This document shows, one piece after another, positions 31,371-64,000 of a stretch of 64,000 nucleotides of DNA. Within the stretch, counting starts at the first letter, position 1; every line of letters starts with the position of its first letter. The position numbers and the translations under genes are program-made. The notes under the pieces are model-generated. The model was not told the DNA's origin. It was given only the letters and a program-made list of their open reading frames with translations, and did not search any database. The DNA is from Candidatus Omnitrophota bacterium (GTDB lineage Bacteria; Omnitrophota; Gorgyraeia; Zapsychrales; JBAZNR01), in assembly GCA_041649175.1 (NCBI GenBank), contig JBAZNR010000001.1:258332-322331 (forward strand), in the 5' to 3' direction.

Positions 31371-31517
31371 AGAACGTGTTCCTTATCCGAATATAAGAAA
31401 TGGTTAATAGAAATTTGTAGGAGAAAATTTTATTTCCGAGAAATTTGATCCCAAAAGAAATATTCGAGAGTTTAACACAAGGGCAATGCGAAGGTCAAGA
31501 TTTTTTAGGAAATAGAG

Positions 31518-31561
31518 AAAGGCGCCTGTCTTGCCATTTTTGCGGCAAGACAGGCGCCTTT
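31518..31561 (-). terminator. rho-independent terminator downstream of PilZ gene 31596..31925
   Basis: AAAGGCGCCTGTCTTGCC-loop-GGCAAGACAGGCGCCTTT hairpin, with a T-rich run on the minus strand. Confidence 0.6.
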
Positions 31562-31595
31562 CGTTTTCAACATCTTCCCGTGCTTTTGAAAAACC

Positions 31596-31925
31596 CTATT
31601 GACAGTACTTAAAGATCCTCTGGGTATCCATAAAGTCAACCTTATCAAATCTTAATCCGGCATCAAAAGCGCTTGGATTAATGGCCCTGCTCCAAACGAT
31701 TTTCCCGCTTAAAATAAGCGGGTCGTGGCCATCAGGAAGCTCCACGACAAGGTCTACTTTATCCTCAAGATTTATTTGCTCTTTGGTGACAATCTTTGCG
31801 CCCTCGGCGGAGATATCACGCAAAAAAACATTACTGCCAAAATCATTCCGTGAATATTGAAACTTAACGGGGAACCTCGCGGTAAAACGATCGAAGACAC
31901 GACGGTCATCTATTTTCACTGTCAT
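31596..31925 (-). CDS. single-domain PilZ protein (c-di-GMP receptor family)
   Basis: 109 aa with RRVFDR (RxxxR) and DISAEGAKI (DxSxxG) motifs. Confidence 0.65.
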   Translation of the reverse strand: MTVKIDDRRVFDRFTARFPVKFQYSRNDFGSNVFLRDISAEGAKIVTKEQINLEDKVDLVVELPDGHDPLILSGKIVWSRAINPSAFDAGLRFDKVDFMDTQRIFKYCQ

Positions 31926-31997
31926 GGCTTCCTTTCTCCGTGGCTTTTAAGCTGTCTATTCCCCTCTCCTTTAAAATAGACAATAGGTTAAACATTT

Positions 31998-32025
31998 GGG
32001 CGCCTGCCTTTTAAGGCAGGCGCCC
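31998..32025 (-). terminator. hairpin terminator downstream of PilZ gene 32037..32360
   Basis: GGGCGCCTGCC-TTTTA-GGCAGGCGCCC. Confidence 0.5.
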
Positions 32026-32036
32026 ATATATTCATT

Positions 32037-32360
32037 TTAAGCAAAATGCTTGCTTAAACTTGCGCGCGAACCATCCAGAATTTCGGTAAATGTCATGCCC
32101 ACACGATAAAGGTCGGATTCCAAAATCTTCGTAACCCAGCGCACTTCCCCTACCGCCACCACCGGCTCTCCTTCAGGCGTTAAGTTAAGCTCTACCAACA
32201 TCTTAGTATCTATCGGAATACGGTTTTTAGAAATAAACCCTACTCCGCCTTTACTGATATCGGTCGTTTGTGTGTCCGAAAATCTTGCCGCTTTTTGCGA
32301 AACAACCGGAACCTGGCAATCGTAACGGGCTGATTTTCTTTTTTCTGCTGCTGATGCCAT
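32037..32360 (-). CDS. single-domain PilZ protein (c-di-GMP receptor family)
   Basis: 107 aa with RKSAR (RxxxR) and DISKGGVGF (DxSxGG) motifs. Confidence 0.7.
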   Translation of the reverse strand: MASAAEKRKSARYDCQVPVVSQKAARFSDTQTTDISKGGVGFISKNRIPIDTKMLVELNLTPEGEPVVAVGEVRWVTKILESDLYRVGMTFTEILDGSRASLSKHFA

Positions 32361-32475
32361 TTTAATGAACCTCCATTTATATTGTGCACTATCATTTCAC
32401 AAAATACAAATTATTTTTTTATTTTTTTCTCGTCGGAAAAATAAAATAAATTTCCTATTCAAAAATAATTTGTAT

Positions 32476-35400
32476 TTATTCCGTTATAAACCTATTTTTG
32501 CTCACTCTGGGCGATACGTCATCCGTCGACGAAACACTTGAGCTCCAGTTGATCACTCCCGGCGTAATACCTAAGTTGTCAATAGATTGCTCTTCGTCAG
32601 GGCACACCATGAATAACTGCCCGGGAACGCAAACACGTTCGGTCTGTGACCAAAGAACATTTCGCGGCTGGGCATTATCAAAGCTTCCCAGCCTCGCGTA
32701 ATAGAATCCTCCTCGAAGAAGCCGAAAGAAATGGGACGTTCTACCTAAGGAAATATCAACTGATTCCGTATCAGCAAAATCATCTCTGCGTGATACCTCT
32801 AGAACGTATCCGATAAGACCGTTAGCGGGGGGCGGCTCCTGCCATTGCGCAGAAATCCCAAAGTAACGCCCTTTATTTCCGCGATGAGCTTCAAAGTTGA
32901 TCGGCGCGCTAAACCGCGGATAGTGCCCCGAACGGTCATAGCCCTGCCGCAATGTTGGCCATATTTTCTGGATAGAACTATCGGCAGGAATATTTAAATC
33001 CCACGCAAAAATTGAATGGTGTTCACTGGCTATTCTGCCAAAGTAATCTCCGTTCATGCGATAAAAGCCATCCGCAGTGGCGACAAACTCTAGTGTTCCA
33101 TCTCCATCTAAATCCACAAGGCTTTTATCGGTAAACGCGACTGACTCAACATATTTAGCAAACCCGTCAATGATCTGTCCTTGGGCATTGCGAGCCATTA
33201 TTTTGGTGAAAATGATCCCGTCAACCCATTCATAGGTTGCGTAAATAACATCCGGGTTTCCGTCGGAATCAATATCTCCCAGAATCGGCCCCAGGCGATC
33301 ATCGCCGGACAGGTTCTCCCAGCTGGTTATTATTGTTCCATTTTGATTTAAAATATAGATCGTATACGGCGAAGAGAAGGAGCTGATAATAATATCTAAG
33401 ACGCCGTCTCCGTTCATATCCGCGATCGCCGGGCTGGACACCCTAAAATCAACATCGGGAAACCAGCGCTCTAATTGTTGCGTATTCGGCCTATAGACAT
33501 AAATGCCGCTTGAGGTATTGATAACGATCTCATCTTTGCCGTCATTATTAAAATCCGCTGTTGACGGTGACCCATGGACAGCAAAGGCATCAATGTAAAG
33601 CGGTTCTCTCACTTGCGTCCCGTCGCTATTAAACAACCACAGCATTTTGCTGTAGACCCCATGCTCACAAAAAGCTACAGAATCAGATACGTAAACAATT
33701 TCATCATCCGCGTCATCGTCAAAATTACCTACGCCGACACCAGCGTCAAGATTGGTCCCGGAACAGTCCGGCATTAATTGCGGCCAATTATGTTCGGGAT
33801 TGGCTTCACCATTGATTTGCATCGCGAATAGGGCGCGATGCGGAACTGAAAGGACAGTAAAAATATGCTCTTTGATCCCATTGTGGTCAAGGTCCCAGAG
33901 GGCATTAAATGTGCCATTAGGGCGATACATAATGCCCGAAAAATAGTTTGAATACAAAACTTCCCCATCCCTGTCATGGGCCACAACTCTATTTTCAATC
34001 TCAGTATCATATTTATGATAGAGAAAATCAGAGCTATCGTCTGCATTTAAATCCTCAATAAAAAGCGAGAATTTATTAACGCCATTATACCCATCATCGA
34101 GCGAGATGATATCATCCAGGCCGCCATTAACCCCGATCACGTAAACAGAAGACAATCCTTGGTCGTTAGAACGCAAGAATGTGATCTCTTTTTCCGGATC
34201 ATCATCAACATTTCCTATTGTGGGAATAATGTTGGCAGAGCTCGTCCCATTGGGCAAAGCCATTCTTGCCGGAAAACCTTCTCTGATCGTTGGGTCAAGA
34301 TAAACCAAAGCCATTGGATCTCTTTTGAAAAGCTCTCCGCCATTATAAACACTTAGACGGAATTGATAAAATCCTCTTTGGGTATCCGCCGGGGCATTGA
34401 ACTGCCCTAAGGTTCCGCTTTCAACAGGCTCTTGCCCGTCATTTTCAAGTACGATTCCTGCTGTCGTCCAACTTTCCGTTCCCTGTGGAGCATAATCAAT
34501 AGAGTAATGATGCCCCGTCGACATTCGCATCGTTCCTAAAAAGTCAAAGCTTGTGCGCCAAACATCGCCATCATAAGGATCAGTGATTTGAGTATTATCC
34601 ACGATGAACGAATGATAATCTGTGCTTTCTTGCCCGTTTCCGGTGATCTGTACGCGCACCAAATAAACACCTTCATTGACAAGTTCCAATTTGTTCACCG
34701 AAGACAATCCTAAAACCGTTGGCTGACCCGGCATTAAAGTGACAGTTCCTTCCGCGTGCAGATCCGGATCCCAGATTTGCGGATCCGGAAGATCCCACGG
34801 CTGAAACTGAGGGTCTTGTCCCATATATCCAACATCGTACGTATAATTGTAGATCTGCTGGTTCTGATCGTGATAACTAATAACAGAGGCTTCATACTGG
34901 GCCGAGCTGACACTGTCCGTCAATTTATTGATTTTCACAATGACCGGAACGATTTCTTGGCTGGCGGTTAAGGCGTCAACGCGTCCATGGCCCTGTTTAA
35001 ACGCATTTTCCGTTCCCTCAACAGCACTGTTACGAATTGCATATTTAACCTGATCGGGATTCCAAGTGGGATGTTGCTCAAGTAAAAGCGCCGCCAAACC
35101 GGACACATGCGGCGCTGCCATCGATGTTCCGCGCAGATTAATATGTTCATTATCAATACAATCACTGGCATCCATGCCTTGACCCGGATATTTTGCCGCG
35201 CAGATCCATTGACCCGGAGCCGAAACATCCGGCTTAATACTCCCATCGATCAAAGGCCCTTTGGAAGAAAAATCTGCGATAGAATCGCCATAGTCAAAAC
35301 TTGCCCCTACCGTAATTGCCTTACGCGATGTTCCGGGGCTATTGATTGTTTTGTATTGATAATCATTACCGGCTGAAACAACAACGACGACGCCGGAATT

Positions 35401-36402
35401 GACAAGATTATCCACAGCTAAAGACATCGGATCATCGGGGTCATTGCTTGACGCACCCAAACTCATAGAGACAACGTCAAGTTGATCTACTACCGCTTGA
35501 TCTAAGGCCGCACTTAGGGCGCCTCCTGGGCAACCATGATTTTGGTGTTCCGGATCAAGATAGCCGCAGGCCCTATAGGCATACAACGTGGCATCAGGAG
35601 CAACGCCCCGAATAGGCTGCCAATTACCAGCTATGCCGTTTCCGGCGATGGTGGCCGCTACATGTGTTCCATGGCCATGATCATCCGCGGGATCATTATC
35701 GTTATCAAAGAAATCGTAGCCGCCTTCGATCTTACATCCTTCCCCTAAGCAACCGTTAGGAAATCCATCGACGGCAAAATCGGCATGCGTATAATAAATC
35801 CCGGTATCGATCACGCCGACTTTAACACCTTCCCCTGTATATCCCTCTTGCCAAACCTGCGGAGTATGAATATACGGTATTGACTGCTGCAAAAGTGTGC
35901 GATAAACCGGCCATGCAAAAACTTTCTTCACAAAGCTGAGGTTTTCAATTTGATCTTTTTCCGATGAATTTAAATCAACCGTAATTCCGTTAAGAACATA
36001 AAATACTTCTGTTTTCTGTCTTTGAGCAAATCCGGAAATAATGTTATTGATCTGCGCAATATACTGAGCATGCAAAACCGAAAGATTGCCGGCATATTGC
36101 TGAGCGCTTGTTCTTTGGTTCACGCTGATCGGATAAGAATTAAATTGTGACGCCGCCGGAAGCTCATGGAACTCGATGAAATATGATACGCTTTCTTCCT
36201 GCGGGACAATGACAACTTCTTGATTGTTATTATTAGGAATAACCGGAACTCCGATGGGAATTTCCAGATTTTGCATATCAACTTGCTGCTGCATCAAAGG
36301 CTGTGGTTCTTCAGCAATATACGCTAGTGAAGCAACCGGAACCGCAGAAATTATGAAGAAGCTGACAGCTAAACATCGCGTAAAATGAAAAATACTTTTC
36401 AT
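32476..36402 (-). CDS. secreted subtilisin-like serine protease (S8) with I9 propeptide and a C-terminal FG-GAP/VCBS beta-propeller region
   Basis: Catalytic triad motifs VGVIDTGI (D), HGTHVAAT (H) and GTSMAAPHVSG (S). Repeated DxDGDG calcium-binding FG-GAP motifs (DLDGDGTLEF, DMNGDGVLD, DIDSDGNPD, DFNNDGKDE). Start placed at the signal-peptide Met (MKSIFHF...) with a GGAGG SD; the ORF track extends to 36456. Confidence 0.8.
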   Translation of the reverse strand: MKSIFHFTRCLAVSFFIISAVPVASLAYIAEEPQPLMQQQVDMQNLEIPIGVPVIPNNNNQEVVIVPQEESVSYFIEFHELPAASQFNSYPISVNQRTSAQQYAGNLSVLHAQYIAQINNIISGFAQRQKTEVFYVLNGITVDLNSSEKDQIENLSFVKKVFAWPVYRTLLQQSIPYIHTPQVWQEGYTGEGVKVGVIDTGIYYTHADFAVDGFPNGCLGEGCKIEGGYDFFDNDNDPADDHGHGTHVAATIAGNGIAGNWQPIRGVAPDATLYAYRACGYLDPEHQNHGCPGGALSAALDQAVVDQLDVVSMSLGASSNDPDDPMSLAVDNLVNSGVVVVVSAGNDYQYKTINSPGTSRKAITVGASFDYGDSIADFSSKGPLIDGSIKPDVSAPGQWICAAKYPGQGMDASDCIDNEHINLRGTSMAAPHVSGLAALLLEQHPTWNPDQVKYAIRNSAVEGTENAFKQGHGRVDALTASQEIVPVIVKINKLTDSVSSAQYEASVISYHDQNQQIYNYTYDVGYMGQDPQFQPWDLPDPQIWDPDLHAEGTVTLMPGQPTVLGLSSVNKLELVNEGVYLVRVQITGNGQESTDYHSFIVDNTQITDPYDGDVWRTSFDFLGTMRMSTGHHYSIDYAPQGTESWTTAGIVLENDGQEPVESGTLGQFNAPADTQRGFYQFRLSVYNGGELFKRDPMALVYLDPTIREGFPARMALPNGTSSANIIPTIGNVDDDPEKEITFLRSNDQGLSSVYVIGVNGGLDDIISLDDGYNGVNKFSLFIEDLNADDSSDFLYHKYDTEIENRVVAHDRDGEVLYSNYFSGIMYRPNGTFNALWDLDHNGIKEHIFTVLSVPHRALFAMQINGEANPEHNWPQLMPDCSGTNLDAGVGVGNFDDDADDEIVYVSDSVAFCEHGVYSKMLWLFNSDGTQVREPLYIDAFAVHGSPSTADFNNDGKDEIVINTSSGIYVYRPNTQQLERWFPDVDFRVSSPAIADMNGDGVLDIIISSFSSPYTIYILNQNGTIITSWENLSGDDRLGPILGDIDSDGNPDVIYATYEWVDGIIFTKIMARNAQGQIIDGFAKYVESVAFTDKSLVDLDGDGTLEFVATADGFYRMNGDYFGRIASEHHSIFAWDLNIPADSSIQKIWPTLRQGYDRSGHYPRFSAPINFEAHRGNKGRYFGISAQWQEPPPANGLIGYVLEVSRRDDFADTESVDISLGRTSHFFRLLRGGFYYARLGSFDNAQPRNVLWSQTERVCVPGQLFMVCPDEEQSIDNLGITPGVINWSSSVSSTDDVSPRVSKNRFITE

Positions 36403-36479
36403 CACGCCTCCTCTGTTGGATGATATTGTTTTTATTTCCACATTTCGACTGAACATTTATCTTCTCCTTTCGATCAAGA

Positions 36480-39400
36480 TCAATGACACGTTGGACAAAA
36501 TTCCACCGGGCCGCTTCCAGTCCAATCGTCTGGGTCTCCTCCGGCAAAATACCCCCAAAACTTTTCCATATTTCCTTCCGGGAAAATATGATCGACAGGC
36601 TTGTAGCGCGTCAAGGGATCGTCTTCTTGATCATTACAAACGACATGGCCTCCGGGAACACAAATTGTTTTAACCGATGACCACATCACGTGGCTTCTAT
36701 CATCACGATTAATACTGCCCACGCGAGTAAAATACCAGCCCGCAGAAAGATCAGAAAAGCGGTAATTATAATTCCGTATTCCCACATCAATGGCGCTAGC
36801 ACCATTGATCAGATGACGGAATTGTGGATCTGAGGCAACTTCAGCCGTATAGGCATACACGTACTTTGATGCCAACGCATCATTCCAGGACAAGGAAGCG
36901 CTGTTGGGCCCTTGTCGAGACGCTTGGAAATTCAACGGCGCGCCAATACCGGCGTAAAGGCCGCGGCGTTGTTGATCCTGACGCAGAGATGGCCATAAAT
37001 GATTAAAAGAGGAATCAGGCACATTCAAATTCCACGCATAAAGTGATACTCGCGGGACGAGATCCGTATTTTCATCAAACCCCGCATCGTCATCATCGGA
37101 GGAACGCTGCAATCCCTTTGATGTTGCCACCAGTTCAAGTGTTCCGTCACCATCAAGATCTGTGAGGATCTTGCCGGGCGTTGTACCCGGCTCAATGTAT
37201 TTAGGAAAACCTGTTATCTCCTGTCCGAGGTAATTCTTGGCGTGGATAGAGCTGAAATAATGATCACCAATATCTTCAAAATCGCTATAAAGAACATCTA
37301 CCTGATTGTCTCCGTTAACATCGCCAAGTATTGCTCCATGAAAATCAGTAAATTTACCATGGACCGGCCAACCGCTTAGCACCGTTCCATTTTGATGCAG
37401 AACATAAATCGAGAACATAGTTGCCTCTCCTGCCTCGAAATTGGCGCTAACCACAACAATGTCGAGATAACCATCGCCATCAACATCACCTAAGGCAGGA
37501 GTAGAAAATGAACAGTCAATGCCAGATAAAAGATGCGCAGTAATTCCAGTTGCCGGATCATACCTATAAACCCCTTGATCAGTATTGACAAAAATTTCGT
37601 CAATGCCATCACCGTTAGAATCACCGCTGGAAGGAGTAGAATACGAGGCCCCGCTAAAATAAACAGGATCAGCGACAGAAAGACCGTCGTAATTAAAAAT
37701 ATATAGCTGCATTAATGGAACACCCGCGTCACAAAATGCCTCAGACTCTCCGACATAAGCAATTTCTTTATCTTCCCTATTGCTGTTAAAATTACCGACC
37801 AAAGGACTCGGCCCAAGTTCCGGCAGTCGACAAGCTGTTATGGTCTTTGGCCAGTTATCGGAGACAGGGTCTCCATTAAAATCAATCAGGTGAAGCGACT
37901 TGCTAAAAGGAGATATAGAATTTACTTGAGCAAAAATGATCTCTCTCGCCCTGTCATTATTAAGGTCCGTATTAACAAAAAAAGTGTCCTGAATGAATCC
38001 ACCGTTAAGTAGCCCACCTGCAAATATTCGAGACCATATGTGTCCTCCATCTTGACGTTTAGTACGCAATTCATTAGGATTTTGAAAACTATCGTGGCTT
38101 TGGCTTTGAAAAAGAAAATCATCGACACTATCTCCGTCAAAATCATCAAGGATAAGAGAGTGATGATTAAAATAGTTATATGTATTTCCATAATTTATTG
38201 TATTTTCATGTTCCCCATTGCTACCAAAAATATGAATACTTCTTCTGTAGCCTGAAGTTAGGCCATAAGAAACAAAGGACATTTCTTGCCTGCCATCATT
38301 GTCAATATCCTTAATGACCAGAACTGGATCTGCCTCAGAGGACTCGGAAGCATATCGTATGGTCCGTGCCGGAAAACCGCTGCGCAATTCTTGATCAACG
38401 CGAACAACGGCAATTGGCTTACTCCACCTCAGTTGATTACCATCATATATCCTTATCCAGAATTTATAAAAACCCGTTGGAAGAGATTCCGGTGTCTGAA
38501 AATTCCCTAATGCTCCTTCCTCTACAGGTTCAAGTCCCTCTTGGGTAAGTGTAATTCCATCACTCGTGAAATATGGCAACGATGAAAGATACGGCTCATA
38601 TTCGATCATATATCGGTATCCCGGGTTTATACGGATCGATCCGGAAAATGATATCGTCTCCCGCCCGATCACATCACCGCTACGCGGACTGACCACTCGC
38701 GCATTTTCTACCAAAAACGTATGGTAGTCTGTCGAATCATACCCACCTGCACTGATCGTCCTAAATCGCGCCAAATAAATACCATCAGCCGGCAATAAAG
38801 ATTTATCGATCGGATTTTGTAGTAATTCTTGAGGAATTCCCGCTTGAAGTACGATCGCGCCTTCTTGATGAAAATTAGTCATCCACTGACCGGGATCCTG
38901 CAGGTCATCCGGCTGAAAATAAGGGTCACTTCCCATATAGCCAACATCAAAGGCATATTGATATTCACCCGGCAATTCATCATGATAGCTTATCAACTGA
39001 GTTCTAAATGAGACTTCGTCTACCGTATCAACATCTTTCAGTATTTTGACAATGACCGGTGGCGGCTCTTGGCTTGCCGCAACCGCGCTAACACGGCCAT
39101 GGCCCTGAGTAAGGACATTGTATCCAAGATCGATCGCGCTATTACGAATGGCATATTTAATTTGGTCCGGATTCCAACCGGGGTGCTGCTCTAAAAGAAG
39201 AGCCGCCATGCCCGCCACATGCGGTGCCGACATAGACGTTCCCCAGGCGCTGACATGCGTACCATCAATACACGGAGTCCATCCCACGGTATTGGCTGCT
39301 TTTGCGGCACAAATTATTGCCCCAGGAGCAACAACATCAGGTTTTACACTGCCATCCATCGTTGGCCCTTTTGACGAAAAATCGATCATCTGATCAGACC

Positions 39401-40496
39401 ATATGTGGCTATCATCAAAAGTCGCCCCAACGGCAATAACCTTTCTGCCTGAAGCTGGATTACCAATAGTTTCATAGAGATAATCATTTGAAGCCGCAGC
39501 AACGGCGACAACACCAATCTCAGCCGCATTGTCAAATGCCTCAGAACAATAATTGTCTGGATCGCCAAAAAGGCCCACAGTAAAGCTTGCCGTCACAACA
39601 TCAAGATGGTCTTCCATATTGTCATCATTGTTGGGATCCACGATTTCTTCAACAGAAAGAGAACAACCTCTAATATAGGCATACAATGTCGCTCCCGGCG
39701 CAACACCTCTTATAGGCTGTCCATCACCAGCGATACCATCACCGGCAACAATGGACGCCACATGAGTTCCATGCCCGTTTGTTAGATCAAGGGCTCCCGG
39801 ATTTCCCCCGGCAACTTTTGCGCAATTTCCGCTTTGGTATTGCTCTATAGTGCAACTTCCAAAATCGGCATGAGTATAATCAATGCCAGTATCTATAACC
39901 GCAACCGTAATACCTGATCCGTCAAACCCGGGATCTTCCCACACGGCTGTTGCGCCGATCTGAGGAGCCGATTCACGCAAAAGAAACCTGGGATCTTCAA
40001 GGATATGGACTTTCTTAACAAAACCTTGTCCTTCAGCTTGTTCCTTCTCCAATCCGGTCAGGTCGATAATAATTCCGTTAGACGCTAAAACAAGATGTTC
40101 TATGTCCCGCTGGCTTAGTGCGGGAACAATAGCGCCTAATTGGGCAACGTACTGATCTTGCATATTCCGAAGATTCTGCGCGTAGATTTGTGCCCTTGAG
40201 TACTGTTCAGACGTACGAGGATACGGGCCTAATTCTAAGGCGGCAGGATGTTCATTAAACTCAATAAAACATTTTTTGATTTCGTCGGGACCCTGCTGGA
40301 CATCTTGCTGAGGAACAATGATTGTCGATTGCGTATTCCAATCAAAGGTTTTTCGGCCTTCCAACGGCGTCAAGGGATAGCGTATCGTCCCCGGAACATC
40401 CGCCGCATGAACAACGGATGGCATGGATATTGAGCTCAATAAAATAACAACAGCCAAGAACCCCAAAAAAACGTTTCGTGTCTTAAAAAACATGGT
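36480..40496 (-). CDS. paralogous secreted S8 subtilase with FG-GAP/VCBS repeats
   Basis: VAVIDTGIDYTHADF, HGTHVASI, GTSMSAPHVAG; FG-GAP motifs DIDNDGRQE, DFDGDSVDD, DSNGDGIDE, DVDGDGYLD, DLDGDGTLE. Same architecture and C-terminal VCVPG..VC motif as its neighbour. Start set at the MFFKTRNVFLGFLAVVIL signal-peptide Met with an AAGGAG SD; the ORF track extends to 40601 and would overlap the giant gene. Confidence 0.8.
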   Translation of the reverse strand, partial: TMFFKTRNVFLGFLAVVILLSSISMPSVVHAADVPGTIRYPLTPLEGRKTFDWNTQSTIIVPQQDVQQGPDEIKKCFIEFNEHPAALELGPYPRTSEQYSRAQIYAQNLRNMQDQYVAQLGAIVPALSQRDIEHLVLASNGIIIDLTGLEKEQAEGQGFVKKVHILEDPRFLLRESAPQIGATAVWEDPGFDGSGITVAVIDTGIDYTHADFGSCTIEQYQSGNCAKVAGGNPGALDLTNGHGTHVASIVAGDGIAGDGQPIRGVAPGATLYAYIRGCSLSVEEIVDPNNDDNMEDHLDVVTASFTVGLFGDPDNYCSEAFDNAAEIGVVAVAAASNDYLYETIGNPASGRKVIAVGATFDDSHIWSDQMIDFSSKGPTMDGSVKPDVVAPGAIICAAKAANTVGWTPCIDGTHVSAWGTSMSAPHVAGMAALLLEQHPGWNPDQIKYAIRNSAIDLGYNVLTQGHGRVSAVAASQEPPPVIVKILKDVDTVDEVSFRTQLISYHDELPGEYQYAFDVGYMGSDPYFQPDDLQDPGQWMTNFHQEGAIVLQAGIPQELLQNPIDKSLLPADGIYLARFRTISAGGYDSTDYHTFLVENARVVSPRSGDVIGRETISFSGSIRINPGYRYMIEYEPYLSSLPYFTSDGITLTQEGLEPVEEGALGNFQTPESLPTGFYKFWIRIYDGNQLRWSKPIAVVRVDQELRSGFPARTIRYASESSEADPVLVIKDIDNDGRQEMSFVSYGLTSGYRRSIHIFGSNGEHENTINYGNTYNYFNHHSLILDDFDGDSVDDFLFQSQSHDSFQNPNELRTKRQDGGHIWSRIFAGGLLNGGFIQDTFFVNTDLNNDRAREIIFAQVNSISPFSKSLHLIDFNGDPVSDNWPKTITACRLPELGPSPLVGNFNSNREDKEIAYVGESEAFCDAGVPLMQLYIFNYDGLSVADPVYFSGASYSTPSSGDSNGDGIDEIFVNTDQGVYRYDPATGITAHLLSGIDCSFSTPALGDVDGDGYLDIVVVSANFEAGEATMFSIYVLHQNGTVLSGWPVHGKFTDFHGAILGDVNGDNQVDVLYSDFEDIGDHYFSSIHAKNYLGQEITGFPKYIEPGTTPGKILTDLDGDGTLELVATSKGLQRSSDDDDAGFDENTDLVPRVSLYAWNLNVPDSSFNHLWPSLRQDQQRRGLYAGIGAPLNFQASRQGPNSASLSWNDALASKYVYAYTAEVASDPQFRHLINGASAIDVGIRNYNYRFSDLSAGWYFTRVGSINRDDRSHVMWSSVKTICVPGGHVVCNDQEDDPLTRYKPVDHIFPEGNMEKFWGYFAGGDPDDWTGSGPVEFCPTCH

Positions 40497-40575
40497 TCTG
40501 CTCCTTTTGCTAAGATGTTGATAAAAACGATCTATAGAAACTTGACGCGCGGACGCGTCAGACTGATTTGATCTG

Positions 40576-43500
40576 CTACAAATGAAGCATTTTTCTGACA
40601 ATTCTTATCTCCTTTCCAAAACTGTTCCCCTGAAGTTGATAAAAATAAACTCTCGGAGGTAAGTCCGAAAGATAAACGGTGATGGGGCGAATGATCACCG
40701 CCGGAAGTGACGGATCCGGAACGAACGGATAAATAGCGAAAACATCTACATAAGAACAACTATCTAAAAGATAACGGCGGATTTGGTTCGTCCGCCAGGA
40801 TAAAAGCGGCGTGTCGTGGTCGGTTGAGTCGAAATCTTGTGAGAAAATATATGAGTCTAAGGAAGATGAATCTTTGAGGGTTTCTTGAGCAGGCGCGATT
40901 TTAAATAGACTTGGATTTTCCTCCGGCGGAGAACGCGCGTCGTGAATATTATCTTTTCCACCTGATACATTATTAAGATCAGCGTTACCATGCCCAAAAA
41001 TTGTCCGCGGGAATAAAATAATAACCGCGGCAACGATCATCAAAAATGTGCCGAATCCACGTTTAAGAATTCTTTGGGGAACATTAGTCTTTATCGGAAG
41101 AGAGTTTGTTCGAGAACCTTGCTCCTTGGCTCCAACCCAGGCATTGTCATCCGTAATGCTTGAAAATGGGATCGTGCCGTTATCATCCACATGATAAAAA
41201 GTTATCTGAGCACCGTTTCGAACAATGCGTTTGGTTTCCACAAGTTTAATATCCCGGGCAACACCTTTTAATAATTCTTGAGCCGGCACAATACGAATAA
41301 GCGTCTTTCCGTTGCGTTCTGAAGATTTATGCACCATATAATCGCGCACGCCATTTTCTAATAGATAAAGTTGGGAAAGAAAATGCGCCAAGGCGATCCG
41401 ATGATCTCTTTTTAACTTTTCAATAAGACAGTTATTGTAAAGACCGAGAAATTCAATAACCGATTTTATGGTGCATGGAGACTGTCGAAAGGAAGGATCT
41501 GATCGAGAAGGGTCATCATCGGGAAAAAGGCTGTTTGCGGAACCAAAATCATTTTCACTGCGGACAAGTCCGAAAAATACAAAACTTAATAAAGAAATGC
41601 TAACTGAAGAAAAATTTTCTATCGGCCAAAGGCCTATCGGCGGGGCGTGGGCCGTTAGAGACAGCCAATCGCCAAGCTGAACAATCATTGTCTCTAACGG
41701 CCCGATCAATACTCCTAAAACAGTTGCGGCGATCATCAAAGGTAAAGCGATAAAACCAGATGAGCGAGGTAAAGAATCCTCCAATAAACTTTTCTTGCCA
41801 AAAAACTTCTTTAATATGGGCCTGAGTTTCTCAAGGACATCAGAAAATTCATTTTCTACCGCGCTTTTTTCAATATCTAAAAGCTTGGCCTCAATTCCAT
41901 CCTTAGACATCCTTTCCCCGGATTTCCTCAGCTTCTTTTTAGCTTCATCTAAATTTTTAGATCCTTTTAAGATATTCAGTATCCATTCTTCAATCAATGC
42001 CCTTTTAAAGCGCTGAAAAAGCTCTTTTGAATCATGGCCTGATTCAAGCGCAAGGATAATACCGGGAATACGGCTATCACGCAAAGCCTTATAGGACATG
42101 GAAAATACCTGGGCCGTTTTTCTTTGGTTTCCGCGTTTTTTCTGCAAAACTGTTATGATTTTCTCGATAAAATCGTGGCTAATAATTTTCTTCCGGCGGA
42201 TCTTATCCTCTTCAGCGCTCTTCGAATTTTCCAATGCCTTGTTCAAACTTTCAAGGATCTCTTGATTATTCGCAGATACTGCCTTCTCGCGAATGGTAGA
42301 AATCCTGCGGTCTAAACTTTTTTTTGCTATATTTAAAGTTTTGGCTGCTTTTCCTCGATCTCCCCTCGCATCTTTTAAAGCTTTTATAGTTTCTTCTGTA
42401 CGGGACGGCAACAAGACTTTCTTTTCTGTCTCTAATGCTTTAGCTAAACGATCAAGAACCTCTTTTTGGCCTGCTTTTACAACTTTTCTACGAAGCTTGG
42501 GGATTCTATCGCGCAAACGCTCAAGAGGAATGTTAAGTGTTTCAGCCGCTTGTTTTTTGTCTCCTTGAGCAGCTTCTAACGCTTTTAAAATATCTTCCGA
42601 ATAAGACGGTAATGCTACTTCTCTGCTTCTTGCTTCGCCTATAGAAAAAGCAAACCGCCCAAATAACAACTCTAATTTTTGAGAAAGCATGCTATCGGAA
42701 GATTCTTTGGCAAAATCATCCAATCGTAATAAAAGCCTCCCTAAGCATTGCAGTGGAACCTGAAGGTTTGAGGCCGCCTCTTGCGCGCTTTCTGATATTT
42801 CTAAGACACTGACAATGCGCTCAGTATAAGTTCCTATAGAACAAATCTCTTGTAGACGCCGCTCATAGAAAAACATATGATACTGAGAAACTGCCGCTTT
42901 AAATTCGTTTAGCTGTAAATAAAATATCTTTTTACTGATCTTATAGCCGCTTCGTTGTATGGCTTCTTCTTCATCACCATAGGATTCTTTTAATTTATCC
43001 AAGAATCTTTTGACCCGGTCCGGGCACAATATTTCACTTAGCTGCTCTTCAATACTTATAGCTGTTTTCTCCCATTCTCCACCTTTATCTTTTGCTTCCT
43101 GCTCAATATCTTCCAACCATTGAATAAATTTTGTCGTAGAAATACCGTTTTTCGCATTGAGCAAATTATAAAAACGCTCCCGGCGTGATGCTGATTTTGC
43201 GTTGATCCTCTTTGCAACAGACAAGATCCTTTGCGATTTCTCTTGAAAAGACATTGCCTCGGCAGAAACACTAGCTGTCTCATCGCTTAATGAAGATCTT
43301 AGATATCTTCGCAATTCATCTAATGAAAAGACTCTTGCGATAAGCTTTAAACTTTTTAATTCCCTCCAATGCTCTTGATCAACTTCTGCTTTGGCAGAAT
43401 TAAACAGGATCACTCGCAACAATACATCGAAATGATTCTTAACAGCCTTACAAAACTGAGGAAATTCTTCCGTATGGAACTTCTCATATTCAAAGTCCTG

Positions 43501-46500
43501 GATGAATCTTCTCCACAAATAATGCATCGAAAACACGGTTCTTTGAGATTCCGCCTTCAAGGCCAGGTCACAAATCCAATAATAAATTTCTGTATACCGG
43601 GCAAAAACCCTGTCGTACTTAATAAGCGTCTGGCGCAAAACCTTCGCGCGGGCTTCATTATCTTCCTGGATTGAATTTATCAACTCTTGCGCTTTTTCTC
43701 CCGACAGAGGATTGTCGTTATGATCTTCCGCGATTTTCTCAAAGGGAGAATTTCTTAGGCTGCGCCAAATCACTTCATCTTCCAGACATAGTATTGATTT
43801 TGAAAATCCCGGATCTCCCTGACGTGCCGTGCGATTAAATAATTGTTGGTCTTGGCGCCCAAACTTATTAGGTTCTGCCTGAATCACGACAAGCCCGCCC
43901 ATTTTGGAAACTCCTTCGCCTAATTTAATATCTTCTCCACGGCCCATCATGTTTGTCCCGACGGTAACCATCTTCTTTTGCCCGGCAGTAGCCACAATAT
44001 CAGCTTCTTGCCAAGCGTTAATGCCGTTTAGGACTTGGCAAGAGATCCCGTTCGCATTTAACAGCGCTCCTATTTCATTGGCTGTTTCAATATAACAAAC
44101 ACCAATAAGCACAGGATTTCCCTTAGCGTGCCATTTTTTTATTTCCTTAAGAACTTCCTCATATTTCTTTTTCTTTGTTCCATAAATCACCACGCCTAAG
44201 TCAGTCCGGCGGCAAGGCTTATTACGCGGGATAAAAGATGTCTTTAAGCCATAGTATTTCTGCAATTCATCCTGCTGGCGGCCAATACTTCCGCTCATTG
44301 TTGACGCTCTCTCGGCAACAGATAAGAAAAAGTGATGCTGCGTCATAATAAGCGCCGGGTCATATACTTGCGAAACGGGCAAATGCTCTTTTGTTTCAAT
44401 AAATTGATGAAGTTGTAAAGCCCAAATATGTTCCGGATGAAGCCGGCCCGTATATTCGTCCACGATCACGATCCTGCCATTTTGCACAACATACTCTTTT
44501 TCTCTGCGATAAAAATAATGGGCTTCTAGCGCCACAAAAATAAGCCGTTCAAAATATTCCTGCAAAGCTTTTTTTCCCTTGGGTGTGAGCAAAGCTATTT
44601 GCCGATAATCTAAGCGATAATGAACTCCCTTTGCTAATAAGGATTTATAAATATTGTTACGCGCCATTTCGACGGGATCTTCCTCTTCCTTTTGCTGATG
44701 GTCATTTTTGCTGATCCAGGAAATGACCTTGACAGTGTCGCGAAACCACGCATGATCGATATATTTCACGATAAAATTTTCTACCAGCTTTGCGCGCGCG
44801 TTTTTTCCTTTCTCGGTAAATCGGACATGCTTTGTAGCCGGATTTAAAATGTAATCTTCCCCCGGTAAAAGCCTATTTAAGGATTCCTGATAAAGGATCT
44901 TGTAAAAAGCACCCATATCCCATCCGTCTTTGACCGTCGTTATGATAGGCTCAAAAGCATTATCAATAAGTGTTTCATCGCCTTCATCAATAACGACAAA
45001 AGAAATTTTTCCGGGCCGGCGTACTTGTTGCTGCGCGTCCGTAACTAAATGATCTCGTTCTATATCGTACACAAACTCATCATTAACGCCGTAAGTGATA
45101 TCTGCCGCGTAGGCTTGCTTTCGATAAAGCCGCAGATTCTCTTTTTTGTTGTGTCCATTGCCATTTCCATTCCCATTTTTAGGAACTTCTAAGGGGCGTA
45201 AATTTTTATAATGCGCGCTGCCGTTTTGATAGGAAGGATCGAAAAGGTACGACTGGCCCCTGACAACAACACCGACGCTTAATCCTAAGAAATGATATAT
45301 GCCGCCCATATCATGAGCATCACGCAAGGCAAGATTTTCTTTAACCGTTGCCACATAGACGCCTTGCTCTTTTAAAGCATTTAAGTAAACAGCCGAAACG
45401 GCCGCTAATGTTTTCCCTTCGGAAGATTCCATCTGGATAGCGCGGCCTTGATAAAGTTGAAAGGCCGCCAAAAGCTGAACATCGTAAGGGCGCATTCCCG
45501 TTACCCTGAAAGCCGCCTCACTGACAACCGCAAATGCTTTCGGCAAGATCTCCTCCAAGCTTCCTCCGTTTTTAAGCCGCAGACGAAATTCTAATGTTTT
45601 GGCCCGCAATTCTTCGTCAGAAAGACCTCCAAGCTCTTTTTCAAGTTCTCTAATGCCGCTTAACAAGAGATTACTAAAAAGAACCTCATTTTCTGAGGGC
45701 AAATTATTAACATCCATAACCTTCGAGAGAGAAAGCCCAAAGTTTTTAGCCAAAACATTCACCACATTTCTAGCAATGCCTAATTCTTTGGCAGAAAGCG
45801 TTCGGTTATTCTTATTTCTCCAAAGTGCGCGTATGCCTGCCCACTCTTTAAGCTCTTCCAGCGCCAAATACAGCGTTGGCTCATCTAAAATAGCGATGAA
45901 ATTCTCTTGTGCTTGCCGCATATCACCCTCGGAATAATTTTTCATCAAAATCCTTATACCTCTTGTGCTTATCTTTAACATTTTTGCGGCTTCGGTTTTA
46001 TTGCGGCCGGCCGCTAAAAACGCGTGAAGAACGGCTCTTTTCTTGATTTCATCCCATGTTAAGGCATCGTTTTTAGCAATGTTCAAATACGGCAATATAA
46101 AAATAAAATCATGAAAGGTGTTTTGGTTTATTTGATATTCGGCTATTTTTTGATCTAAATCTTCCTTTGACAGTCCTAAGTTTCTTGCCGCATTTTCTAT
46201 ATCACCGCCGCATTTCGCCAATGCAAAAAGAATTTGTTTTTTCTCTTTTAATGTCAATTCTGCGACGGGGTCTGATTCTTCTCGGTCTTTTTTTGATCTT
46301 TTGCTAACCGCCAAAACCGCGGCGGCAAAAACCATCTCCGTTGGGGCGTGAGGAAAATAGCCAAACACCGTGATCAAGATAAGAACCGCGCCAAGAGGAT
46401 AAACAAGGTTGTAAATCCTCTTTTTCTTTAAAATAGAATAGATCCTCCCCCGAAGATATCTCTGCAGCATAATGGGGTAAAGATTGCCGAAAATATTAAA

Positions 46501-49500
46501 GATCCCTAAAACAGAAAGTAAAATCATTCCCGCTATTTGAATAATTCCTGTTGTCAGCAAACTTACGGCCAATAATCCGCCCATGACAGAAAGCACGATC
46601 AAAGAGTATATGTAGTGGATCGTTTCCATTTCCCTGGTTGTTGTCTCTTTTCTTTTTAATGCCTCAGCGGAGAAGTGATCGACAAATACACTCGGCGGTA
46701 ATTTCTTAATATCTCTCAGCAGCCATTTTCTAAACATCTTGATCCCGAGAAGCTCATATAGTTTGCCGCTTCGTTCGAAGAATTTCGGCTTAAAAACAAA
46801 CTCAGCCCGACGAGGATCTTTTAAAAATACATTCACTAAAGATGTGGAGAAGTAGGAAATCACAAGAACACCCGCAATCAAGATGAGAGAAGCTATCCCA
46901 ATAAGAACGGCCGATAAAGAAATAATAGCGAAGGATTTAGAGGAAAGAATGGTGGTGGCAAGAAATATCGTGGAATTCATCGACCCAGGGGCGAAATTTC
47001 CAAACAGATATTCCAGCATTCCCCAAAGTACCACAAACCCTGTAAGCCCAAATCCGATCCAGCCGTGAAGCTTTTCTCCATCAAGCTCTTTTAAAGAATC
47101 GTCTTCTTGCCGAGAATGAATATCCTCAAGGATGTTCTTTAAAGGTTGATGAACTCTTTGGACAGAAATAATTTTTGGGCGCAAGTATGGTATTTCTCTC
47201 AATACTGCGACACTCAGCCGAGGAGAAAAATTGCCCACTTCAAAAAAAAGATTAGTTCGGATATTGCGAAGTGCTAAGCCCCCGATATACGCACTCTTGC
47301 TCTTACCTAATTTTATGCCTGGCCTCATCACTTCAAAAGTACTACCATTCGCCCCATTAAGCACATCACCCATTTGCAAATCTTTAAGTAAAAATTGATC
47401 AGCAGGAATAGTGAGGGTTGCCATTTTTTCTTCTTGTGAAGGAGAGGAAGGAGCCTGAGCCAAAGAATTTACCGGAGAAACACTTACTACCGCTGTTAAA
47501 ACTGCGGCAGAGAAAATAAAGCGTGGGTTGAGATATTTTATCGGTGGCGCCTGGGCGAAATGGCCGAAGAGATATCCCAAAACTCCCAACAATCCTACAA
47601 ATCCAAACAACACCCAGCTGCAAAGTGCGGTTTCTTGGGAATCTAATACAAAACCTTTTGTTTGTTCTTTAGCTGACTGAGATCTATCAAGGGAACTCTT
47701 CCGAGCAAGGGCATGACCGGCTAAGACAATAAATTCGCCATTTCCCACCGGGAAGAGCAGTTTATTAGCTATGAAAATGTAAACTGCTTTTTTCATGTGC
47801 TCTGTAGATTTAATGATTTCCAACGAGGCTTTATCCAAGATTCTTTCCAAAGTTAACCGCGCCCCAATACCTGCCGCAAGGCAACATCGTTCTATTTCTT
47901 GAAGATCAACCAATACAAATTCGCCCAACGTCCCTAGTGCTTCTTTTGAGTTAATTTGAAATCTTTTTTGGAATCTGGAAATATATACCGCAATCTCTTC
48001 TGGAGTAAGAAGTTTCTCCCATGCCCTATCGGGTAGCGTGATAGACGAAACATGTTTTAGACGCTTAAATTCCCCGTTCATTCCGGGAAGAGCTAAAATT
48101 AAAATTCCATTGCGTTCATATCGAAATATAAAGCCGCGCTTATAGCTTAACGCCCCTAATATTTTTTTGATGGTTACGACAGAATTGATCATCGACAACG
48201 GCACTTGATCATAAACGATAAAAGTATTTTCCGTAAGGCCGTTAAAATAGATCGATAGCATGTCGACCCAAAATGATTCAAAATTGTCTAGGATTGGCTG
48301 GCTTTGTTCTCTGGAAAAACCCCAAACTTCAAGATTACGGATAAGTTTTTCATCTTCCCGCAAAAAAAGCGCAGGAACACTATTAGAAACACTTTGTGGA
48401 CGACTTGCTGAGCGTTTACTTTTTCCGGAGGATCGTTTTGAAGATACTCTATTTTCTTTCTGACTACTCTTTCTTAGAACATCATCTTCGTAAATCTTAT
48501 TCTTAATATCTTCCAGCAAGTGTTGTAACTCGCGGATACGAACCAAGAATCTTAAATCATCAATACCTTGGCTTAAAGGATCTAGTTGCGACAATGCCAT
48601 CTCGGCATCTTTATGATCAAAGTATTCTTGATAAATTTCGATAAGCGCCTTGGTCTTTGAGCGTAATTTTTCTGCATTCGCATCAGGAAAATTTTTCTTA
48701 GGAGCCCGCAAAGCAATCCATTGACTTAAACGTACGTCTCTGGTTTTTGTCGGTTCCTTAAAAACCGGAATGATATTCTTCAAGTCCCTAGCAGGAGGCA
48801 CCTGCCGACCGATATATGGATCAATTAGGTCTAGTAGCGCCTTAAACCGTGAGCGTGGCAAAGTTTTAAGGAAGAACTCGGGATTACTATCAATAAGCTG
48901 AGCAATTTGACGTGATGTAAATCCAAAAAGGCTTAAAACAAGATACAAGAAATGGAGGAAAACGACAGACTCTAAAAACCTTTGCTTGGTCCAATTTGAA
49001 ACCCGGTACCAATACGTGCGGCTAAAAGAAACCCCGTAGTTTTCAGGAATACGCATCCGTTCTAAAATCTCTTCCGGTAACCGAAGCCTTTCCCAAACAA
49101 CATCCGGAACAGGCCCAATATATTCCGCATCATCTCGTCCGGATAGAACAGATTCTTTTCCCGCCTTGTGCTGCGCCTGTATTTCTCGTAATTCTTTCCG
49201 AATCCTGTCTTCCTTATAATTAGATATTATAAGAGCAGAGATGGGCATTTTGAATTCATCCTGAAATATTCTTGCCTTCCTTAAATATTCCGACGGAGAA
49301 ATCTTTCTTTGGATATATTTCGGAAGTCTATGATATTCAATACCGCGGGCACGTAATTCTCTTAAAGCCGCCGGACGCCCGCTATTGCTCATTTCTTTGG
49401 CTACGCGCATTTTTTTGTTCTCGATCAAAAGAAGCCTTTGGCTATGCGCTGGCTCTGCAGCCAAATCACACCGTAACGGTTTAAATTCAACGACTAAACT

Positions 49501-52500
49501 CCGCAAAGGCCTATTTTTTAGAGTTCCAAAATCAGCCTCGGTAGCCAATCGAAATACCGCCCAGGCATATTCACCCGGATTTCCTAAAGAAAAGCTTAAT
49601 CCTTCAATGCCCTTACACCAAAGGCATGTTCCTAATTGCTCATGCTGGGCTTTACGCAATTTAACTAATTCCCTAGAGGGAATCGCCTTGGTAAATTCTT
49701 CAACGTATAAACGTAATTCGGATTCTATTTTCTCATGGGAAGGAGTTTTGCATAAACTTAACCCCAAACTCTGACAACGCGCGCGAACTTGATAAGGCCA
49801 TTGTCTTTTTCTTAAACCATCAAATGCTTTGATCATTTCTGTTGCCGTCGGAAATCTTTCATGAGCAATCGTTAAGGATTGATGAGCCGTACGGTATTCT
49901 TGATCGGTTGTCACCGATCTTCTTGTGCTTGTTTCCTGTTTTACCGTCGCCCACGCCATACCCAAGGGCGCGAAAAGAGGCAAAAACGCAAATCCGTGAA
50001 GCTTTTCTTCCGTCATTCCCTCAACCGCTTTTTCCCAGTAATCAAAAGAGTCCCCGATAACATCAGAATAAGATTCATTCAGTTTCTTAAGTGCCAAAAA
50101 TAAAGCTGTTGCCTGATCATTTAATCCAACTAAACGTAATGATTCAAGGATTCGCGTAAGGCGTAGAAAATTGTCATTCGGTGAAGATAGCCAAACACGG
50201 CTTCTATTCTTAAATCCCGGGCTATGGACGACGCGCAGGCCATTTTGACTGTTTCTTAAGGCAAGCCCATAGAAGGAAAGCATGACCTTAAGGGATCGGA
50301 TCATATTTGATCTAAGGTTTTGACCGATTTTTGTATCGGCACGAAAAGTATCGGCAGTTTCCCGGGTTAAAACAGGAGGAACAACCTTTTCTCCTAGGTT
50401 ACGGCCCATGATTTCCCACACAAAAGCACCAAGGCTTTTTGTAGGGAACAATAACTGTATAAAATTGTGGTCTTCTTCAAGCTGCTCATGGCTAAATCGC
50501 CAAATATCACGAATATATCTTCCTTCGTGGTCTGTTCTTCTTCCCAAATAAAAATCAATCAGTTTGTCATTGAATCCTGTAAGCGGCCATGAGTCATCCC
50601 CCACCGTTCCTAGGGCCGGCAAGCAGAATAAAAGCGAAATAAACGGTAGCCCGAAACAACAAAGAGCTTCCGATACAATTTTCCTGTTTTCCAACACCAC
50701 AAATTCTATTTTCCGTGCCGTGATGACATAATATTCCGTCGGGAAACCTTTGCTGTCGTAAACCTGCTTAACGGTAATGCCGCTATACCTTTGAGATCGC
50801 TCAAAATAGTGTAAAACTAAATTTATCCTTTCTTGGGCAGAGTGATGATCATTCCACGTTTTAGTTCTTGCTGAAGGATCGGAACGGTCGTCAAAAACAA
50901 CAGCAAAAGGCGCGCCAACTTTTAAAATTCGGTTAACCTCTCTAAAAAATCTCCTCGGCTGTTTAACATAGGCAATGCCGTTTTTCATCAATACGCCCGA
51001 AGCGTAATCATTCGCCAGTAATCCTAGCCCCCGATTGACATCAAAAACAATGCCTTGGGTGAGCCTTTGATTTGCGCGTAATTCAACTTGATTTAACCCG
51101 ATGCCAATAAATTCTCCCTGAAGAGTGCGCGGAAAATATGTCTTAGCGCCGCTCATCAGGTCAACAAAAATAGGTTTTTTGATCCGATGATCATTTTTAA
51201 AAATACTCATTAAGGCATGTTCAATGGCGATCTCTTGTTCAGTATTGGTATAACCGATCAAATTAGGCTTCTGCCAAACGGAAGATAGGTTTTCTACCGT
51301 CCCCCACAGCCCAAACGGCAAGAAACAAGCAAGATTATTTTGTTTCTGGAAAATATAAGCTCCATTTCTTGCCCCACCGTAAGCAGGGCCGTTATAACCA
51401 AAAATAGCCCCCTGTCTTTCTAACCCCAAAAGAACACCATCTTGCACCAAGGTTAGTAACCCGCGTGCGCTACGCTCCATAGCCCTGTCGCTATCAAGAA
51501 TGACAAATCCTCCGGGCCTTAAGAACTCTTCAATAAGCCGAGCTGATAAAAGGAATTTTCCGTCTCTAATATAAACATCACCGGCTTTGATAATGATAAG
51601 ATCAACCCCTTGGGACGCTTCAAGATGACTTCGATAGGAATCAACGGCTAAACCATCCGTTTTTTCAACAAAGATCAAAGAACGCTCTTTTCCCTGCAGC
51701 ATAAAATTCAAACTGAAAGTACCCGCGTGGTGGCCGGTCGAATTTAAATCAATATCAGTCACACCGCTTGCCCTTAGCTCTTTCTTTAAAAATGGCCATA
51801 TCCCTTGGCACATCCACAACAATTCATTCGAGATAAAACCCATTCGGCTTTTTTCTATTAAATACAATTCGATGATCTTATCTTGGTGTATGGCGCAACG
51901 CGGATCAATATCATCCATCTTGCCGCCTGTTAGCATCATCATAAGCTTGATCATCAAAAAATATTGAAGAAGCTGCTGTTGTTGCTCTTGAGAAACTGCA
52001 TTTAGATTTGTGTGAAACGGAAGTTTTTCGATAAAAATAAATTTGGCGGCATTGGTCGTAACCCAAGCTGTAGAAAAATCAGCGGCCGGCCCGATCAAAA
52101 GCGCCACTCTTTGTTCATTGTCTCTCATGGTTTCTGCGCTGTTAACAATTTCGCGGATACGGCTCATGTATCGGAAATTCAACTCTCCGCCAACCAACAT
52201 TTCCACGGACCAGATTGCCGATGATCGATCACCGCTTCTATTGCCCACCGTCGCCCACACTAAACCTAGCGGCAGACAGGCCGACAGTATAAAGCAGGAA
52301 AGTTTTTCTTGCTGTGCCGGCGAAGCGGAACTATCAGCAAAAAATTCATCCCAACCGCTGTCCATCCAATCGGCCTTCTGAATTAAACCAAATTTAGCGA
52401 CAATTTCTCCCTTTAACTCACGCGTGCACATGTTTAAGTTAACGCTCATGCTCCCGCTAGAATGAACCACGGTTGTTCCGACGCGTTGTGAGATTTTCTC

Positions 52501-63996: not shown

Positions 63997-64000
63997 GATC

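Follow-up and report, generated by a model that had tools for sequence, protein, structure and literature searches.

Two adjacent genes, hereafter A and B, encode predicted secreted proteases of the subtilase (S8) family directly downstream of a giant open reading frame (ORF) in Candidatus Omnitrophota bacterium (assembly GCA_041649175.1). They were analyzed within a 64,000-nucleotide (nt) stretch of contig JBAZNR010000001.1 (positions 258,332 to 322,331), called the window here, whose numbering is used throughout. Genes A and B, the giant ORF, and the two small pilZ genes that follow the pair are all on the minus strand, and the coordinates of the features are collected in Table 1. Both ORFs of the pair are intact. 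A first-pass annotation made from the DNA letters had given their place correctly, but gene A starts at 40493 and not at 40496: the codon 40496-40494 is ACC, and the ATG at 40493 lies 7 bases past an AAAGGAG ribosome-binding site (RBS). Because the stop codon of the giant ORF occupies 40578-40576, the gap between it and gene A is 82 nt instead of the 80 nt first reported. For gene B, the mechanical ORF (32476-36456, 1326 amino acids [aa]) extends to an alternative upstream ATG at 36456. The start at 36402 has a GGAGG RBS ahead of it, and the canonical signal peptide MKSIFHFTRCLAVSFFIISAVPVASLA begins there. The 1308 aa encoded from this start match database protein P0001 exactly. A second database protein, P0002, named at NCBI 'S8 family serine peptidase [Candidatus Omnitrophota bacterium]', is taken to be gene A since it has the same length (1337 aa) and, against gene B, the same identity and score. 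Both P0001 and P0002 are on one contig of 1,225,647 bp. In GC content, the pair resembles its surroundings and does not stand out.

Table 1. Features of the subtilase pair and of the surrounding DNA, in window coordinates
Feature	Coordinates	Strand	Basis
Gene A: S8 subtilase with FG-GAP propeller, 1337 aa	36480..40493	-	ORF, RBS, Pfam S8 and FG-GAP
Gene A S8 catalytic domain, residues ~192-462	39108..39920	-	Pfam, BLASTP alignment, 51-sequence alignment
Gene B: paralogous S8 subtilase with FG-GAP propeller, 1308 aa	32476..36402	-	ORF, RBS, Pfam
Gene B I9-like propeptide, residues ~71-165	35908..36192	-	AlphaFold (block pLDDT mostly 76-98), Foldseek
Gene B S8 catalytic domain, residues ~166-482	34957..35907	-	Pfam, family alignment, AlphaFold model
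Gene B two beta-sandwich (Ig-like) domains, residues ~483-704	34291..34956	-	Model ma829434c419b, pLDDT mostly ~90 or above
Gene B eight-bladed FG-GAP/VCBS beta-propeller, residues ~705-1142	32977..34290	-	Pfam, motifs, model, Foldseek
Gene B FN3-like domain (residues ~1171-1267) and ~40-aa disordered tail	32479..32892	-	Model (tail pLDDT < 50), motif search
Spacer giant ORF-gene A, 82 nt	40494..40575	-	7-bp GC-rich hairpin, then RBS of A
Spacer A-B, 77 nt (23 nt if B starts at 36456)	36403..36479	-	RBS ahead of both candidate B starts
Spacer B-pilZ1, AT-rich	32361..32475	-	Perfect 17-nt inverted repeat; pilZ-proximal part conserved in L024
Giant ORF, 3' part, at least 7,807 codons, open at window edge	40576..64000	-	ORF, domain search
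Two small PilZ-domain genes	32037-32360 and 31596-31925	-	Pfam PilZ, E 1e-13 and 6e-13

The two proteins share the layout that had been proposed for them, with a signal peptide, an S8 domain, an FG-GAP propeller, and a cysteine-containing C-terminus in both genes. In each protein, the N-terminal Sec signal peptide is the only hydrophobic segment. The Peptidase_S8 model (PF00082, cut-off 21.8 bits) matched A with 163.4 bits (E 9e-48) and B with 195.7 bits (E 1e-57), and both sequences carry the VIDTGI, HGTHVA, S/G-N-D, and GTSMA/SAPH motifs, with the triad in the order Asp, His, Ser. The active-site residues are D202, H241, N336, and S420 in A (counted from the alignment) and D199, H244, N346, and S427 in B. 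A family alignment of 51 sequences, A and B among them, shows no change in the oxyanion Asn or in any of the catalytic residues Asp, His, and Ser. Since these residues are retained, neither protein is an obvious pseudoprotease, and the triad substitutions that the first-pass annotation had named as a sign of inactive homologs are absent from both. Compared with the family consensus, gene A has SFTVG in place of SLGG in the substrate-binding strand and a shortened helix after the catalytic His. The best solved relatives of the S8 domain are all S8A enzymes, namely, Tk-SP, Vpr, and the subtilisins BPN' and Carlsberg. Several named subfamilies were considered and rejected: mycosin (TIGR03921) was the best NCBIfam match but reached only 100.1 bits in A and 151.3 bits in B against a cut-off of 278.75, and PrtP, CspBA, and the anti-phage peptidase IteS gave sub-threshold matches only.

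In an AlphaFold model of residues 1-502 of B (predicted local distance difference test [pLDDT], 83.9), a signal helix and a disordered linker precede a confidently predicted beta-alpha-beta-beta-alpha-beta unit (residues 72-163) and the subtilase fold. Foldseek aligned this model over 430-442 columns with the unprocessed pro-subtilisins 3afg and 3whi, and therefore both the propeptide and the catalytic domain align. An I9 propeptide had been described for both proteins. Its expected fold is present in the gene B model, but the Pfam I9 model (PF05922) matched neither N-terminal region, also with the limit relaxed to E < 1; the same Pfam domain is present in many of their homologs.

The remainder of B (residues 482-1308) was modeled with a pLDDT of 84.9 and a predicted template modeling score of 0.82. 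The predicted order of domains is two beta-sandwiches of immunoglobulin-like (Ig-like) type (residues 6-120 and 123-221 of the modeled fragment), an eight-bladed propeller, and an FN3-like sandwich; the chain then ends in about 40 disordered residues. Each blade of the modeled propeller has four strands, giving about 32 in all. At the sequence level, FG-GAP_3 (PF13517, cut-off 26.9) scored 47.4 bits in A and 62.5 bits in B, and FG-GAP (PF01839, cut-off 22.1) scored 30.1 and 43.2 bits, respectively. Calcium-loop motifs of the D/N-x-D/N-x-D/N type occur eight times in each protein; those of B comprise seven found by pattern search and VGNFDDDADDEI, which was read from the sequence. The best structural matches of the propeller in Foldseek were integrin alpha headpieces and Bap1 of Vibrio cholerae.

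A cysteine motif closes the FN3-like domain, reading CVPGQLFMVC in B and CVPGGHVVC in A. The conserved C-terminal VCVPG..VC motif noted earlier is real in both proteins, but it does not extend beyond this small clade. In a set of 261 retrieved proteins, CVPG..C is carried only by A, by B, and by a single unrelated match; P0123 shows the variant RVCIGGIANC. We infer that the motif forms a local disulfide and is not a sorting signal. The search for C-terminal sorting domains that had been suggested yielded none, with no NCBIfam match at E <= 0.1 to the C-terminal domain of the type IX secretion system (T9SS), PEP-CTERM, LPXTG, GlyGly-CTERM, and similar models. A terminal hydrophobic helix is likewise absent, and the tail is predicted to be disordered. 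The C-terminus of gene A (36483-36560, minus strand) ends in ...GSGPVEFCPTCH with a terminal CxxC pair, which gene B does not have.

Pairwise alignment bore out the description of A and B as a tandem pair of strongly diverged paralogs. The proteins are 39% identical over their full length (1337 columns, E = 0, BLASTP). Broken down by domain, S8 is 50% identical, the two beta-sandwiches 45% and 37%, the propeptide 40%, the propeller 35%, the FN3-like domain 24%, and the tails 16%. A repeat search recovered residual DNA similarity as stretches at 72-79% nucleotide identity about 4.1 kb apart and revealed no direct repeats on either side of the pair such as a mobile element would leave. Neighbor-joining on 1,071 columns from 25 family members placed A and B as sisters in 199 of 200 bootstraps, with P0003, P0004, and P0123 as their next relatives (support, 148/200). 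On this sequence evidence, the pair stems from an old, lineage-specific tandem duplication.

The protein of gene B retrieved 3,034 database proteins at E <= 1e-10, and architectures were read from the best 120. More than 100 of these 120 join S8 and FG-GAP in proteins of 1,100-2,000 aa, many of them with 27-33% identity over about 80% of the query. The architecture, which the first-pass annotation had called unusual, is a common one. Furthermore, when the non-protease part of B was used as the query, 9,084 representatives matched at E <= 1e-3, and about 10 of them cover the whole sandwich-propeller-FN3 module. A scan of contigs with gene B gave partial matches to the S8 or propeller parts alone and no close relatives. 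A literature search on FG-GAP together with subtilisin or Peptidase_S8 found no paper describing the combination. The S8-plus-propeller protein is a known and annotated type that lacks experimental characterization, and what is unusual here is only its position beside a giant gene.

Organism names were available for eight matches beyond the source genome. Two are bacteria from lineages of the candidate phyla radiation (CPR), one from the Patescibacteria group and one from Sungbacteria. The other six are archaea, namely, one each of Pacearchaeota, Micrarchaeota, and Aenigmatarchaeota, two Woesearchaeota, and one unclassified archaeon, so that five belong to DPANN lineages. Archaeal marker genes were also present on three homolog contigs: an archaeal-type PheRS and a KH/beta-CASP nuclease on L003; an archaeal LonB (849 bits), replication factor A, and an archaeal RqcH on L026; and a ribosomal L10 with the RL10P insert and Ribosomal_60s on L029. 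These observations suggest that S8-propeller proteins occur preferentially in ultra-small, host-dependent lineages (CPR, DPANN, and Omnitrophota).

Paralogous arrays are frequent among the family members. On the archaeal contig L026 (10001-22528), an S8-FG-GAP gene of 2024 aa, a Por_Secre_tail gene of 364 aa, and a second S8-FG-GAP gene of 1780 aa follow one another, and on L028 (1258-22536) there are five FG-GAP proteins in a row (1270-1465 aa), a single one of which includes S8. Small genes for Por_Secre_tail, a C-terminal domain of the T9SS type, also lie ahead of the homologs on L002 and L025; the presence of this domain on the archaeal contig L026 is odd. The occurrence of S8-plus-propeller proteins in small-celled, host-dependent lineages, often in arrays, may merit a systematic survey.

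The setting of A and B differs from that of these homologs. The giant ORF continues beyond the window, since the codon 63999-63997 at the edge is ATC, and its first ~200 codons inside the window contain no Met. Its window part includes SecA DEAD, SecA preprotein-binding, P-loop, HATPase_c, two Fis-type HTH_8, and sigma-70 region 2 and 4 domains, together with APH, Metallophos, ROK, S-adenosylmethionine methyltransferase, OGFr_N, and CrtO domains and 12 transmembrane-like segments; no S8 domain of its own was found there. This part of the ORF is a mosaic of normally cytoplasmic domains. Most giant genes of Omnitrophota are reported to combine SecA_DEAD with multiple transmembrane segments, and the methyltransferase content of the present ORF resembles the 'Archaeovorin' category of giants (West-Roberts et al. 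2023, bioRxiv 10.1101/2023.11.21.568195). According to the same study, giant genes are usually followed at once by small pilZ genes and then by solute-binding proteins, transporters, and glycoside hydrolases. Because the published pattern is giant gene then pilZ, and the pair splits it here, A and B sit between elements that are normally adjacent. Past the pair, the genes follow the published pattern: the order is two pilZ genes, a GH94 (glycoside hydrolase family 94) gene, a gene for a 1086-aa protein with repeats resembling carbohydrate-binding modules, and an ABC sugar importer, and the island also holds an MFS transporter, a GH2-TPR protein, and a ROK kinase. The 1086-aa protein (25386-28646, minus strand) lies between GH94 and the ABC sugar-binding protein and is secreted. 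It has six repeats of ~170 aa, which start with N-x-G-F-E-N-G-L-x-D-W, end near (A)YFDD, and resemble a carbohydrate-binding jelly-roll module, with no Pfam match.

The first-pass annotation had proposed that the proteases process or work with the giant protein. A giant neighbor was found at none of the eight homolog loci examined. The last 1,000 aa of the giant protein, used as a homology query, matched no database entry, not even the protein itself, and the downstream neighbors of related giants were consequently sampled only through the pilZ homolog. The single database relative of pilZ1 is P0122 (60% identity) on contig L024, where a large ORF, open-ended and at least 1385 aa long, is followed by pilZ1, pilZ2 (72%), and GH94 (86% over 92 aa), with no protease genes. 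This large ORF is similar to the HTH-repeat region of the giant (E 9e-12) and unrelated to gene B. Subtilases are also absent from the conserved flank list of West-Roberts et al. (10.1101/2023.11.21.568195) and from a 2026 survey of the flanks of 14 giant genes, which names secretion/pilus genes, glycoside hydrolases, transposases, and defense genes. Judged by these gene neighborhoods, the link to the giant gene is weak, and in the loci sampled A and B do not behave as conserved accessory genes of giant loci.

Between the giant ORF and gene A, the only hairpin (40560-40543, -10.9 kcal/mol) has the tail AGUUUCUAUA, a poor U tract, so the strong terminator and promoter that could have separated the two genes were not found. 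Since no strong terminator intervenes, A and B may plausibly share a transcript with the giant gene. The A-B spacer has no significant RNA structure (z-score, +0.28). A promoter scan gave 22 sites against 20.5 expected in shuffled sequence, no better than chance, and an Rfam search of 31300-41300 at E <= 1 gave chance-level matches only, with no riboswitch and no cyclic di-GMP element near the pilZ genes. Downstream of B, a 17-nt AT-rich inverted repeat (32402-32418/32461-32477, -17 kcal/mol) overlaps the gene B stop codon. Its pilZ-proximal arm lies within GAAAAA..AAAAAAATA.TTTGTATTTTGT, which is conserved upstream of pilZ1 in L024. The stretch just upstream of pilZ1 is shared between L024 (4190-4260) and the B-pilZ1 spacer, which puts the insertion's downstream edge right above a conserved pilZ leader. 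These similarities suggest a conserved pilZ leader or promoter, with one repeat arm created or retained at the insertion junction. Strong hairpins follow pilZ1 (31997-32026, 13 bp, -30.9 kcal/mol) and pilZ2 (31517-31562, 20 bp, -40.2 kcal/mol). Both GC-rich hairpins behind the pilZ genes share the core GGCGCCTG and may be copies of a repeated terminator element.

Taken together, the reading that we favor, with a probability of roughly 60%, is that A and B are secreted, self-processing subtilases with a surface-binding propeller, duplicated in tandem and inserted in the giant-gene island, and that their probable task is to break down surface or matrix proteins while the bacterium attaches to or feeds on other cells. 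It draws on the gene sequences, the predicted models, and analogy with characterized propellers. The data show the domains, the signal peptides, the active-site residues, the paralogy, and, for the loci sampled, that linkage to giant genes is not conserved. What we infer in this scheme is that the proteins are exported, process themselves, and bind calcium, that the propeller serves in binding, which substrate is cut, and that the genes are co-expressed. The pair would be transcribed probably by read-through from the giant gene, and the Sec signal peptide would export both proteins. The I9-like propeptide would aid folding and then be removed autocatalytically. The product would be an active S8A-type serine protease joined to two Ig-like sandwiches, an eight-bladed calcium-binding propeller, and an FN3-like domain. 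If it works like the propellers of integrin alpha and Vibrio Bap1/RbmC, the propeller module would be a binding or targeting device that keeps the protease on a surface, the most plausible ones being a host or prey cell envelope and the surface of the bacterium itself, where the protease would cut surface or matrix proteins. The pair could thereby add a proteolytic arm to the presumed attachment and cell-wall-degradation toolkit of the island. As for its placement, the best reading of the comparisons is a recent, lineage-specific insertion and not a conserved partnership with the giant protein.

It is important to consider four points that weigh against this interpretation. First, surface retention is assumed, as neither protein has an anchoring or sorting signal. 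Second, the activity or specificity of gene A may differ, given SFTVG and the shortened helix. Third, co-transcription, although plausible, is inferred only from the spacing and the lack of a strong terminator, with the promoter scan at chance level. Finally, the lineage enrichment comes from eight named matches and three contigs, and the sampling of groundwater metagenomes could explain it.

An alternative that we consider unlikely, though it survives best, is that A and B are general extracellular proteases for nutrient scavenging, regulated independently and placed beside the giant gene by accident. The homologs occur in many unrelated contexts, the pair is missing from the syntenic L024, its GC content resembles that of the surroundings, and no conserved regulatory link is known, all of which would fit such a role. 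However, the large binding module favors a targeted protease over a freely diffusing one, and the insertion has the same orientation as a functionally coherent island, with neither a strong upstream terminator nor a recognizable promoter.

Less probable still is that A and B are dedicated maturation proteases that cut exported segments of the giant protein in trans, in the way proposed in cis for built-in S8/C39 domains. Some giants have S8 domains at their N-termini that are proposed to cleave them (West-Roberts et al., 10.1101/2023.11.21.568195), the window part of this giant has none, and its 12 transmembrane-like segments could leave parts of it facing outside the cytoplasm. The genes also lie directly downstream on the same strand, with a short gap and no strong terminator. 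Nevertheless, the eight homolog loci without a giant neighbor, at least three of them on contigs with archaeal markers, argue against a dedicated partner, as do the large ORF of L024, which runs directly into pilZ, and the two flank surveys that name no subtilases. A large adhesion-type propeller is moreover unexpected in a processing protease, and the N-terminal part of the giant, beyond the window, could itself contain a cis S8 domain. The more specific version, in which the propellers would dock on the exported segments of the giant and the S8 domains would cut them, replacing the cis S8/C39 domains, is slightly more doubtful again; if true, it would offer the first handle on how giant polypeptides of Omnitrophota mature. 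It is highly improbable that one or both proteins are catalytically dead adhesins using the subtilase fold as a scaffold, like the pseudoprotease CspC, because the deviations of gene A and weak matches to CspC/CspBA models (about 30 bits for CspC against a cut-off of 675) stand against Asp, His, Ser, and oxyanion Asn residues that are kept in both proteins and invariant across 51 members.

The secreted, surface-targeted subtilases favored here matter chiefly for their position and for the apparent concentration of the family in host-dependent microbes of very small size. The giants of Omnitrophota are an open problem, both as to whether the product stays whole or is cut up and as to its role in prey attachment or predation, and proteases encoded right behind a giant gene are an obvious choice for enzymes that process its product or act with it. 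Since the comparative evidence points to a one-off insertion of a common protein type, not too much should be read into the finding.

Among known systems, the closest catalytic domains are those of Tk-SP of Thermococcus kodakarensis (3afg, 9ues) and Vpr of Bacillus subtilis (8jmw), which match the S8 domain with E values of 3e-51 to 4e-47. Their structural identity to B in Foldseek is 31-38%, with Vpr 8jmw and Tk-SP 9ues at 38% each. These enzymes are secreted, as predicted for A and B, and likewise carry extra beta-rich C-terminal domains; their N-propeptide has the I9 fold, which in the pair is seen in the model of B but is missed by Pfam. Unlike A and B, they have no FG-GAP propeller, and the Omnitrophota proteins add about 800 residues in the form of two sandwiches, the propeller, and the FN3-like domain.

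The closest parallels for this added part are the integrin alpha headpiece and Bap1/RbmC of V. cholerae (Foldseek probability, 1.0), in which a calcium-binding FG-GAP propeller is followed by Ig-like domains. The propellers of integrin alpha and Bap1 mediate adhesion or ligand binding, and a binding role in A and B would follow by analogy. Identity to B is only about 10-13%, neither has a protease domain, and integrin alpha propellers have seven blades, in contrast to the eight of the B model.

The S8-FG-GAP proteins of CPR and DPANN lineages (P0003, P0123, P0006, P0062, and P0098) have the same architecture and length as A and B, with 27-40% identity over 70-92% of the query. As in A and B, their active-site columns are conserved and arrays are frequent; three of the eight homolog loci have a small neighboring Por_Secre_tail gene, whereas the A/B locus does not. 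Finally, the S8/C39 domains inside Omnitrophota giants (10.1101/2023.11.21.568195) share with A and B the peptidase family, the phylum, and the association with a giant of the SecA_DEAD type. However, those domains are embedded within the giant polypeptide, whereas A and B are separate secreted proteins with signal peptides and propellers of their own.

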